DNA from: a virus
Lineage: Duplodnaviria > Heunggongvirae > Uroviricota > Caudoviricetes
Length of the DNA stretch: 35,491 nt
Virus record (IMG/VR): IMGVR_UViG_2671180778_000014
Location: 1 to 35,491 of that record
Reading direction: 5' to 3' (one strand)
The notes below the pieces were generated by a model that was not told the origin of the DNA, did no database searches, and saw only the letters and a list, made by a program, of their open reading frames with translations. The position numbers and the translations under genes are program-made. This document shows, piece by piece, positions 15,391-15,988 of the stretch (position 1 is the stretch's first letter; every line of letters begins with the position of its first letter).

Positions 15391-15397
15391 AAAATTA

Positions 15398-15514
15398 ATT
15401 CTTAGCCTTGCGGCCTCGTTTTGCTGTGGCTTTCGCCGTAACTTCTTCTACTTCTGGAATCACCACCGCTTCATGTTCCGGTAGTGGTTCCGGTTCGGGA
15501 AGTTCTTCGTTAGT
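15398..15514 (-). other. in-frame post-TGA extension of the tail tube gene (putative readthrough segment)
   Basis: 39 sense codons in frame after the TGA at 15515-15517, no ATG; translates TNEELPEPEPLPEHEAVVIPEVEEVTAKATAKRGRKAKN; ends TAA at 15395-15397 just before the terminator. Confidence 0.45.
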
Positions 15515-15988
15515 TCATCCGGCAGTGAAGATTTGCTGTTTCAGCGGAGCACCATCAACAGCAAAGGTAAACTCTTTAGTTACCACTTCTTCATCGCCAC
15601 CGTTCATAGCAACTTTAGAAATAAAGCCGTTGAAAGCGGTGCGAATACCAGTCTGTTTTCCGGCGTCAACATAATACTCTATTTTGATTTGAATACGCGT
15701 ACCATCCTCGGCAGCTTTGATCAGTTTTTCATGTACCGCATCACCTGGGATGTAGTTAACGGTCAGAGTCAGATCAGGAACGTTCAGTTTACCTACCAGT
15801 TTACGGTTATACTGAGAAGAGAAGGATTTAACTTCTACAGTACCGCGCTCGATACCAGTTTCAGGGAAACCAGCACACTCTTTAATTTCTTCGTATGCTT
15901 CATCAGCAAGATCGGTGTTAGTGGTATCAGCGTGATAGAACAGACTTACCAGACCACCAGTAAAAATATCTTTAAATTGTTGAGACAT
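15515..15988 (-). CDS. major tail (tube) protein
   Basis: 157-aa ORF with strong RBS TAAGGGGT, position upstream of G/T chaperones and tape measure, followed by a terminator. Confidence 0.55.
   Translation of the reverse strand: MSQQFKDIFTGGLVSLFYHADTTNTDLADEAYEEIKECAGFPETGIERGTVEVKSFSSQYNRKLVGKLNVPDLTLTVNYIPGDAVHEKLIKAAEDGTRIQIKIEYYVDAGKQTGIRTAFNGFISKVAMNGGDEEVVTKEFTFAVDGAPLKQQIFTAG

Follow-up and report, generated by a model that had tools for sequence, protein, structure and literature searches.

Does translation of a tailed-phage structural gene continue beyond its stop codon? This question is raised by the tail tube gene of an Escherichia coli prophage that is some 35 kb long, has siphovirus-type structural genes and is contained in IMG/VR record IMGVR_UViG_2671180778_000014 (positions 1 to 35,491, analysed as a whole and hereafter called the window). 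The gene lies on the minus strand, which holds most genes of the window, and its reading frame remains open for 39 codons past a terminal TGA; the capsid gene of the same prophage is followed by a segment of the same layout. Our analysis of the two genes and their relatives indicates that these segments are probably programmed UGA readthrough extensions, which would be borne by a minority of tube and capsid subunits and be decoded most likely by tRNA-Trp.

The tail tube gene and its in-frame extension

The open reading frame (ORF) of the tube gene, stop included, occupies 15515..15988 on the minus strand. Its coding part (15518..15988) specifies a protein of 157 amino acids that consists of the tube domain only and matches phrog_158, major tail protein, with an E-value of 7e-22. 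Matches to the lambda-like tube families of Pfam fell slightly under the cut-off, and no sequence match to the protein was found in the Protein Data Bank. An AlphaFold2 model gave the lambda gpV tube domain and the YDC107 tail as top Foldseek matches at probability 1.0, the gpV tube domain aligning with the tube domain over about 150 columns. Both this fold and the position of the gene upstream of chaperone and tape-measure genes fit membership of the lambda gpV-like tail tubes, and the orthologue in E. coli H2 is named 'phage tail tube protein' by the Prokaryotic Genome Annotation Pipeline (PGAP).

The TGA at 15515-15517 is followed by an open frame, as the original prediction had it: 39 sense codons (15398-15514; TNEELPEPEPLPEHEAVVIPEVEEVTAKATAKRGRKAKN) contain no ATG and end in a TAA at 15395-15397. 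This TAA is the first of the strong terminal stops TAA-TTT-TAA (15389..15397, minus strand), the second in-frame TAA lying at 15389-15391. Two in-frame GTG codons, at extension codons 17 and 18, had been absent from the prediction. The stop itself is part of a putatively leaky signal of conserved context, TGA-ACT (15512..15517, minus strand), with A at position +4 and U at +6. The extension has two parts on the same strand: an acidic Pro/Glu-rich arm, TNEELPEPEPLPEHEAVVIPEVEEV (15440..15514), which is open in frame 0 in all relatives despite indels of 2, 3 and 5 codons among them, and a basic tail, TAKATAKRGRKAKN (15398..15439), of a type that recurs in relatives as KRSRKAKD, KKQRKTKE, KKERKTKAK, KKVGRPPKAK and KRGRKPKE. 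Some tip variants, with GRP or RGR (KKVGRPPKAK, KRGRKAKN), appear to resemble AT-hook or histone-tail sequences. A conserved block, GTTACGGCGAAAGCCACAGCAAAA, with a GGC-GAAA-GCC mini-hairpin occupies 15419..15442 (minus strand), and the terminal stops run into an intrinsic terminator at 15356..15390 (minus strand) with a 10-bp stem and a T run (fold -17.8 kcal/mol, z -3.4), in which the best terminator-like hairpin of the region spans 15366-15390.

The extension is predicted to be disordered, with a predicted local distance difference test score below 50 in the AlphaFold2 model at residues 159-198 of the tube readthrough product. The extension peptides had no match in Pfam, PHROG or other families, and the 39 residues of the tube extension did not match the folded Ig-like or FN3 accessory domains, which are beta-sandwiches of about 80-100 residues.

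Stop usage sets these genes apart within the window. TAA ends 30 of its 35 genes and TGA the other 5; a TGA followed by A is found only at the tube and capsid genes, three of the five TGA-ended genes have no extension, and no TGA occurs inside genes. In the tube segment, frames +1 and +2 hold 2-3 stops. It is the stop context, not the length of the open frame, that exceeds chance.

A sister cassette on the capsid gene

The capsid gene (21479..23479, minus strand) encodes a fusion of prohead protease, scaffold and major capsid protein of 667 amino acids (Pfam Peptidase_S78 and Phage_capsid; phrog_617). Its TGA, at 21476-21478, opens a sister cassette (21350..21478, minus strand) that consists of TGA-ACT and a 42-codon in-frame extension, TPVEPSEPSPDLGEENLIPEPEEESQTVKAKATAKKQRKTKE, followed on the same strand by TAA TAA and a near-identical copy of the terminator (21310..21349, hairpin at 21320-21341); the parallel layout that had been predicted for this gene is confirmed. 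An exact 14-mer, GCGAAAGCCACAGC, which in the tube cassette belongs to the conserved block, is common to the tube and capsid segments and occurs nowhere else in the window. Aligned, both segments follow one plan: TGAA(C/A)T, a variable acidic part, GTTA(C/A)GGCGAAAGCCACAGC, a variable basic part, TAA, and AGCCCTGCC..GGTGGGGCTTTTTT. The capsid segment folds well beyond shuffles (z -4.65).

The capsid cassette with TGA was found in 33 relatives. Its distribution is mosaic when the loci L058-L062 are compared with the window: some prophages have the cassette on the capsid gene alone and others on both capsid and tube genes. In the same comparison, the tube copy resembles a recombinant of the short capsid form (NNEELPEE...VVTAKATAKK), terminator included. 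This likeness suggests that the whole 3' cassette may have been transferred between the two genes.

Conservation of stop, frame and phase among relatives

Relatives were drawn from IMG/VR, where a search reported 509, from E. coli genomes and from public assemblies, and a pattern match in the relatives collected gave 38 distinct cassettes. The tube region is present in 22 of 5426 complete E. coli genomes and the extension cassette in 54 of them, at one or two sites per genome. All 38 cassettes keep the stop context as TGA-A(C/A)T, and the last sense codon before it varies, being GGA, TCT, GCT or GGT in tube genes and GAA, GAG or GAC in capsid genes. The block ACGGCGAAAGCC stands in phase 0 to the TGA in 38 of 38, at distances from it that fall into six classes (55, 76, 85, 94, 100 and 103 nt). 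Between the capsid TGA and the terminator stem lie 96, 138, 141, 144 or 147 nt, each a multiple of 3. This test of phase is not circular, because it is anchored on homologous nucleotides rather than on the stop that follows. Frame 0 contains no stop in any variant, and frames +1 and +2 contain 1-7 each. Neither a frame-breaking indel, which had been named beforehand as a finding that would speak against translation, nor an in-frame stop occurs among the 38 distinct cassettes.

Some variants also lack any codon from which the segment could be started. In the 28-codon capsid variant of L034, NNEELPEEIPVVTAKATAKKVGRPPKAK, none of the codons ahead of codon 21 is ATG, GTG or TTG, and in L061 a TCG replaces the sole TTG of the others, which leaves no usable start. 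The cassette is also carried by capsid alleles only about 39% identical to that of the window (L118-L121, ending ...VVQKKGE/VD/SD-TGA-ACT). On the other hand, tube alleles of 58-73% identity that have no extension end in TAA or TAA TAA and are followed by a different terminator, and the TGA cassette of the capsid gene is kept in these prophages. A profile search of genome contigs with the capsid alignment gave six loci, mostly remote.

The synonymous bias that had been proposed as a check gave modest support, and this in the tube extension only: the ratio of nonsynonymous to synonymous polymorphism (pN/pS) was 0.42 for frame 0, compared with 0.82 and 1.17 for the two alternative frames. In the capsid extension the ratios (0.70, 0.75 and 0.73) did not distinguish the frames and were uninformative. 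Weak constraint of this kind is compatible with a disordered arm and does not prove coding.

One metagenome record, P0001 (198 amino acids; L063, European Nucleotide Archive contig k141_243218, 842 bp), translates tube and extension as one protein. We rejected it as a relative with a sense codon (Trp) at the stop position, the contig DNA having TGA there. It is apparently an artefact of gene calling with genetic code 4 and could mislead database searches.

A covarying RNA helix downstream of the UGA

In every cassette class, the 6 nt that start 10 nt past the UGA complement the 6 nt just before the conserved block, so that the helix closes off the part that encodes the acidic arm. In the window, the 5' strand of this helix in the tube cassette is AACUUC (15496..15501, minus strand) and the 3' strand is GAAGUU (15443..15448, minus strand), the latter abutting the conserved block and its GGC-GAAA-GCC mini-hairpin; the equivalents in the capsid cassette lie at about 21457-21462 and 21392-21397. 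The main tube form, AACUUC with GAAGUU, is replaced by AACAAC with GUUGUU in the tube form of L012, by AAUUAC or AAUCGC with GUAGUU or GUGAUU in the short capsid forms, and by AACCUU with GAGGUU or ACGGUU in the long capsid forms. When 29 distinct sequences were pseudo-aligned, pairing held in 91% of cells, and 4 of the 6 pairs change on both sides. The covariation score was reached by 0 of 500 shuffles and a slid partner strand pairs at most 49%, the helix being derived from the same, related sequences that score it. The mini-hairpin is 100% paired.

Local hairpins inside the helix, CCCCC/GGGGG in the long capsid form and CCACUACCGG/CGGUGGUG in the tube form, are class-specific. We rejected them as stimulators, each being absent from the other cassette classes and only the outer helix being common to all. 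Readthrough could be stimulated by the helix in the manner of the 3' stem-loops of eukaryotic viruses; alternatively, the helix may contribute to the stability of the mRNA or to the function of the terminator. No Rfam family matched at gathering score, and a scan to E <=10 gave only terminator-driven noise and no selenocysteine insertion sequence (SECIS).

Similar tails in another frame or directly fused in distant relatives

In capsid genes 31-48% identical to that of the window, a tail is fused directly, lies in the -1 frame, or, in Edwardsiella, occurs as a homologous peptide across frames. Many distant capsids have the direct fusion, a short Ala/Lys/Glu tail followed by TAA (for example ...AEAKSKA*, ...AEAKAAKQ*, ...ETRKAK* and ...EASKAK*). 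In others, a Lys-rich tail in the -1 frame ends just before a terminator, and an A_AAR lysine motif stands two or three codons ahead of the zero-frame stop. The locus L116 (3330-3450) has the classic A_AAA_AAG in GAA AAA AAG ACG GGA GCT TAA, and its tail, which reads KKDGSLTDTGAQAAPVRKPRALKVTK*, has no start codon. The corresponding sites are GTA AAA ACG... in L111 (3420-3540; tail ...ASPAKVKKPRALKVK), GAA AAA CAA... in L114 (3360-3470; ...LRKAKAKAKAKAETAE), GAA AAG... in Escherichia phage DCP80 (6540-6670; ...AAPVKKSKSASG*), GTA AAG CAA GGG TGA in Edwardsiella and GAA AAG ACG GAG TGA in Proteus; two further -1 tails lie at L064:2760-2870 and L065:4540-4650. A hairpin 5-6 nt past the stop is common to L116 and L111, which differ in it by one compensatory change (CAGGAGCA/UGCUCCUG versus CAGGAGAA/UUCUCCUG). 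These tails after A_AAR are candidates for a conserved -1 programmed frameshift that would give the same kind of capsid tail.

The -1 peptide of the Edwardsiella capsid gene, VIPTGREEVSVKSGRKPKTDN, is recognisably similar to VIPEVEEVTAKATAKRGRKAKN of the window, and the Edwardsiella tube protein has the in-frame end ...NVIPEAVAAKEK. Since tails of this kind occur in different frames or fused, the tail is conserved as a peptide, and is attached to structural proteins by whatever route the local frame allows. Ig-like accessory domains are likewise reached by +1, -1 or in-frame decoding (PMC5009743).

Readthrough as the probable route to the extension

That the segment is translated through its TGA, as originally proposed, is therefore supported by the phase and open frame kept over six length classes, by the invariant TGA-A and by the TAA found where the extension is absent, and by the start-less variants and the homologous tails in other frames or fused. 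Because the extension lies in frame 0 and no slippery heptamer precedes the tube TGA, stop-codon readthrough is the simplest route to it. Other routes were considered and rejected: a frameshift is at odds with the frame-0 position, the stops in the other frames and the lack of a slippery heptamer, and for stop-hopping there is no codon matching GGA downstream of the tube TGA. An antisense ORF (15408..15674, plus strand) was also rejected, the corresponding frame containing stops in L012 and L017.

Of the stop codons, UGA is the one most prone to leak in E. coli. An A after UGA is reported to favour misreading by tRNA-Trp (Engelberg-Kulka 1981, as cited in PMC5289835), and in E. coli both reporters and the proteome, analysed by mass spectrometry, show Trp as the main residue inserted at UGA, at readthrough rates that go up in the cold and under nutrient limitation (PMC11126739). 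We propose that the cassette, with its UGA-A(C/A)U, acidic Pro/Glu arm, Ala/Lys/Arg tail, tandem TAA stops and intrinsic terminator, would act as follows. Most ribosomes would stop at the UGA and release the normal 157-residue tube protein, and a minority would decode it by a near-cognate tRNA, most likely tRNA-Trp, and translate 39 more codons. A stop-spanning peptide such as QQIFTAGWTNEELPEPEPQPEHEAVVIPDVEEVTAK is predicted for the readthrough product, and the tube subunit so lengthened would end in some 40 disordered residues. On the capsid gene, readthrough of the same kind would add 42 residues, and virions would carry a few extended subunits on head and tail. What the sequences establish is the anatomy of the cassette, its conservation, its phase relative to the stop and the UGA-A context; readthrough and its rate, the insertion of Trp, a modulating effect of the helix and display on the outside are inferred.

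Where would the extension be displayed? The alignment with the gpV tube domain implies that it would leave the fold where the accessory Ig-like domain of gpV starts. That domain of gpV sits outside the tail. Capsid C-terminal additions of T3, T7, A2 and PSA are likewise accessory (PMC5009743), and a few cationic tips would therefore be expected on the outside of each head and each tail. Of the possible roles, a weak electrostatic adhesion of these tips to polyanionic surfaces (lipopolysaccharide, capsule, mucus, DNA) is a tentative suggestion by analogy with accessory Ig-like domains, which we regard as possible rather than likely and which is the weakest step of the argument; the extension may also have a role in assembly or DNA contact.

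Weighing of alternative explanations

Several observations weigh against readthrough. The length of the extension alone is within chance, since 39 open codons are not rare: 5 of the 33 other genes of the window have an open stretch of at least 24 codons past the stop that is not a downstream gene, and one has 42. The capsid extension has weak amino-acid constraint and no frame preference in pN/pS, and the variants are related and partly mosaic, so that the indel events which are independent are few (about six or more). The segment is left unannotated by PGAP and other annotators, and RF2 is more active in natural E. coli strains than in K-12, which bears on basal readthrough. The conservation of the 24-nt block and the helix at the nucleotide level also fits an RNA-level function. 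Could the segment then be an untranslated 3' region, kept as a structured end that stabilises the highly abundant capsid and tube mRNAs, as a terminator aid or as a small RNA derived from the 3' untranslated region with the conserved block as its seed, the open frame being incidental? The near invariance of the block GTTACGGCGAAAGCCACAGC with its GNRA mini-hairpin, the covarying helix that encloses most of the segment, the folding of the capsid segment, the strong terminator directly after and the capsid pN/pS would all agree with it. Such a role leaves unexplained why six length classes keep phase with the TGA, why frame 0 alone is free of stops, why TGA-A stands where the segment exists and TAA where it is missing, and why relatives of unrelated nucleotide sequence encode a similar peptide in another frame or as a direct fusion; moreover, no Rfam family was matched and the block has no antisense match in the window. 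We consider an exclusively RNA-level function unlikely, and an RNA role may exist alongside translation.

A separate micro-protein of about 22 residues, started from the in-frame GTG before ATT-CCA (VIPE...) or by termination-reinitiation, is less probable still. The GTG directly ahead of ATT CCA is kept in 16 of 16 tube variants, and the homologous peptide of Edwardsiella and Proteus starts with a GTG overlapping the capsid TGA (GTGA). Capsid cassettes, however, carry CTG or GAA at this position, L034 has no start before codon 21, L061 is without its TTG and the tail ORF of L116 is without any start codon; no Shine-Dalgarno sequence lies at a usable distance, and the open, TGA-phased region upstream of the GTG would remain unaccounted for. 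The directly fused A/K-rich tails of several relatives make a fused ancestor plausible, from which the segment could descend as a decaying relic, cut off by a nonsense mutation and no longer expressed. The stops and frameshifts expected of a relic are absent in 38 distinct cassettes, in capsid alleles 39-98% identical and in two genes, and the TGA never reverts and never turns into TAA, the sole apparently 'fused' protein being the P0001 artefact; this explanation is hardly credible. We give as little credence to a dedicated decoding of the TGA, whether as selenocysteine, by an opal-suppressor tRNA of phage or host, or in a reassigned code. UGA is the selenocysteine codon, the hairpin about 10 nt downstream is near SECIS spacing and stop recoding occurs in some phages, yet neither SECIS nor any other Rfam match was found, the sequence and loop of the downstream helix differ wholly between cassette classes, and no tRNA gene was found in the 35-kb window. 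In addition, the three other TGA-ended genes have no extension, no gene has an internal TGA, and the host E. coli uses the standard code. UGA readthrough thus remains the explanation that we prefer.

Comparison with known recoding systems

The closest likeness is to Qbeta (Qubevirus durum), also an E. coli phage, whose coat gene ends in a leaky UGA-AC (TAT TGA ACA CTG, against UGA-ACU here) and continues into an in-frame, start-less extension with a Pro-rich linker first, giving a minor extended structural subunit with tRNA-Trp as the accepted decoder. Qbeta differs in being a single-stranded RNA levivirus whose A1 extension is folded, about 195 residues long and essential for infectivity, whereas here a tailed double-stranded DNA prophage has predicted disordered extensions of 28-45 residues on two genes, each with a terminator after it. 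In a review table of readthrough cases, Qbeta A1 and Bacillus subtilis SacB are the phage and bacterial entries, and there is no tailed phage.

The precedent of Listeria phage PSA, to which the original prediction had pointed, proved sound, frameshifting being used there on both capsid and tail genes (PMC5009743). In PSA, A118 and A500 of Listeria and A2 of Lactobacillus, capsid and tail-tube genes each give a normal and a longer product by recoding at the 3' end (PMC5009743). In these phages the longer products come from +1 or -1 frameshifts at slippery sequences such as CCC_UGA, and several of the phages add Ig-like domains, while here the extension is in frame 0, has no slippery site and adds no folded domain. 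Accessory C-terminal additions that are dispensable or substoichiometric are also known from T7 10A/10B, the T3 capsid, SPP1 gp17.1/gp17.1* and the Ig-like domain of lambda gpV, where they are attached to capsid proteins of the HK97 fold or to tube proteins like gpV. Frameshift or constitutive fusion gives rise to them, in no case readthrough, and those of T3, SPP1 and lambda are folded Ig/FN3 domains. Alphavirus-type sites with an extended 3' stem-loop (PMC3159437) resemble the cassette in having UGA, a short spacer and a long-range helix supported by covariation, but there the ribosomes are eukaryotic, the stop context is UGA-C and the spacer measures about 8 nt, compared with 10 nt here. 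In stop-recoded phages (crAss-like and others, with TAG or TGA reassigned), in-frame stops of late structural genes are likewise read as sense; these phages have many internal recoded stops and usually suppressor tRNAs, in contrast, each of the two genes here has exactly one such TGA, placed at a domain boundary, the window is without tRNA genes and the host uses the standard code.

All known dual-product capsid and tail genes of tailed phages use frameshifting (PMC5009743), and our literature search, which most papers in subscription journals lay outside, gave no report of readthrough in tailed-phage capsid or tail genes. The cassette may be, with chances that we put a little short of even, the first case of programmed stop-codon readthrough in a tailed double-stranded DNA phage. 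It would be brought about by a portable 3' cassette, spacer and covarying helix included, recombined onto capsid and tube genes and onto 39%-identical capsid alleles, where related phages would use -1 frameshifting or direct fusion. The virion surface would thereby be equipped with a tether tipped by a polycation, at a dose that is low and may depend on conditions.

If so, since UGA readthrough in E. coli rises with cold and starvation, the dose could adjust how virions adsorb to polyanionic matrices or are retained there. Very few cases of natural programmed readthrough are known from bacteria, and the cassette would offer a natural system, open to genetics, in which to study UGA readthrough and the influence of 3' context and structure on bacterial ribosomes. 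Recoding mechanisms would appear as interchangeable solutions for dosing an accessory tail, and a cationic tip on an acidic spacer as a simple non-Ig adhesion device. The cassette would also provide a natural low-copy display site on head and tail, and would flag a class of phage protein isoforms that are unannotated and overlooked by gene callers.

Genomic neighbourhood of the tube and capsid genes

The copy of the prophage in E. coli H2 (NZ_CP028733, at about 2.52-2.56 Mb) is 96% identical and lies inside hicB, adjoining a serine recombinase gene. When 50,697 phage records were searched with the tube region by megablast, there was no match, and tblastn matched only Escherichia phage DCP80 (45% identity) and some Vibrio phages; on these results the prophage has no characterised close relative. 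DCP80 (L001, PQ671644.1) is a record of 141 kb classed as Straboviridae/Gaprivervirus, yet it has a portal like that of lambda, a fusion of protease and capsid, and tube and tape-measure genes in a siphovirus-type module that is related to the window prophage. The record may be chimeric or misclassified.

The genes on the 3' side of the tube gene encode a gp38-like adhesin, two chaperone-like proteins (14489-14797 and 14118-14459) and a tape-measure candidate of 810 amino acids. The adhesin (14840-15346, minus strand) is of the T-even type (Gp38_N, E 4e-15) and stands between tube and chaperone genes. The chaperone-like genes (14118-14797, minus strand; Phage_TAC_13-like and Phage_tail_T-like) are in -1-related frames, as the conserved G/GT frameshift would lead one to expect. 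Directly upstream of the tube gene, 16045-19668 (minus strand) encodes a long-tail-fibre-like protein of 1207 amino acids with a C-terminal S74-type chaperone region; fibre genes are unusually placed within a siphovirus tail module. Just upstream of the fibre gene, 19745-20578 (minus strand) encodes a protein of 277 amino acids, the N-terminal half of which matches the tube family phrog_158 (E 9e-9) and the C-terminal part of which has weak tail-fibre matches. It is possibly a second protein of the tube type, serving as an anchor for side fibres.

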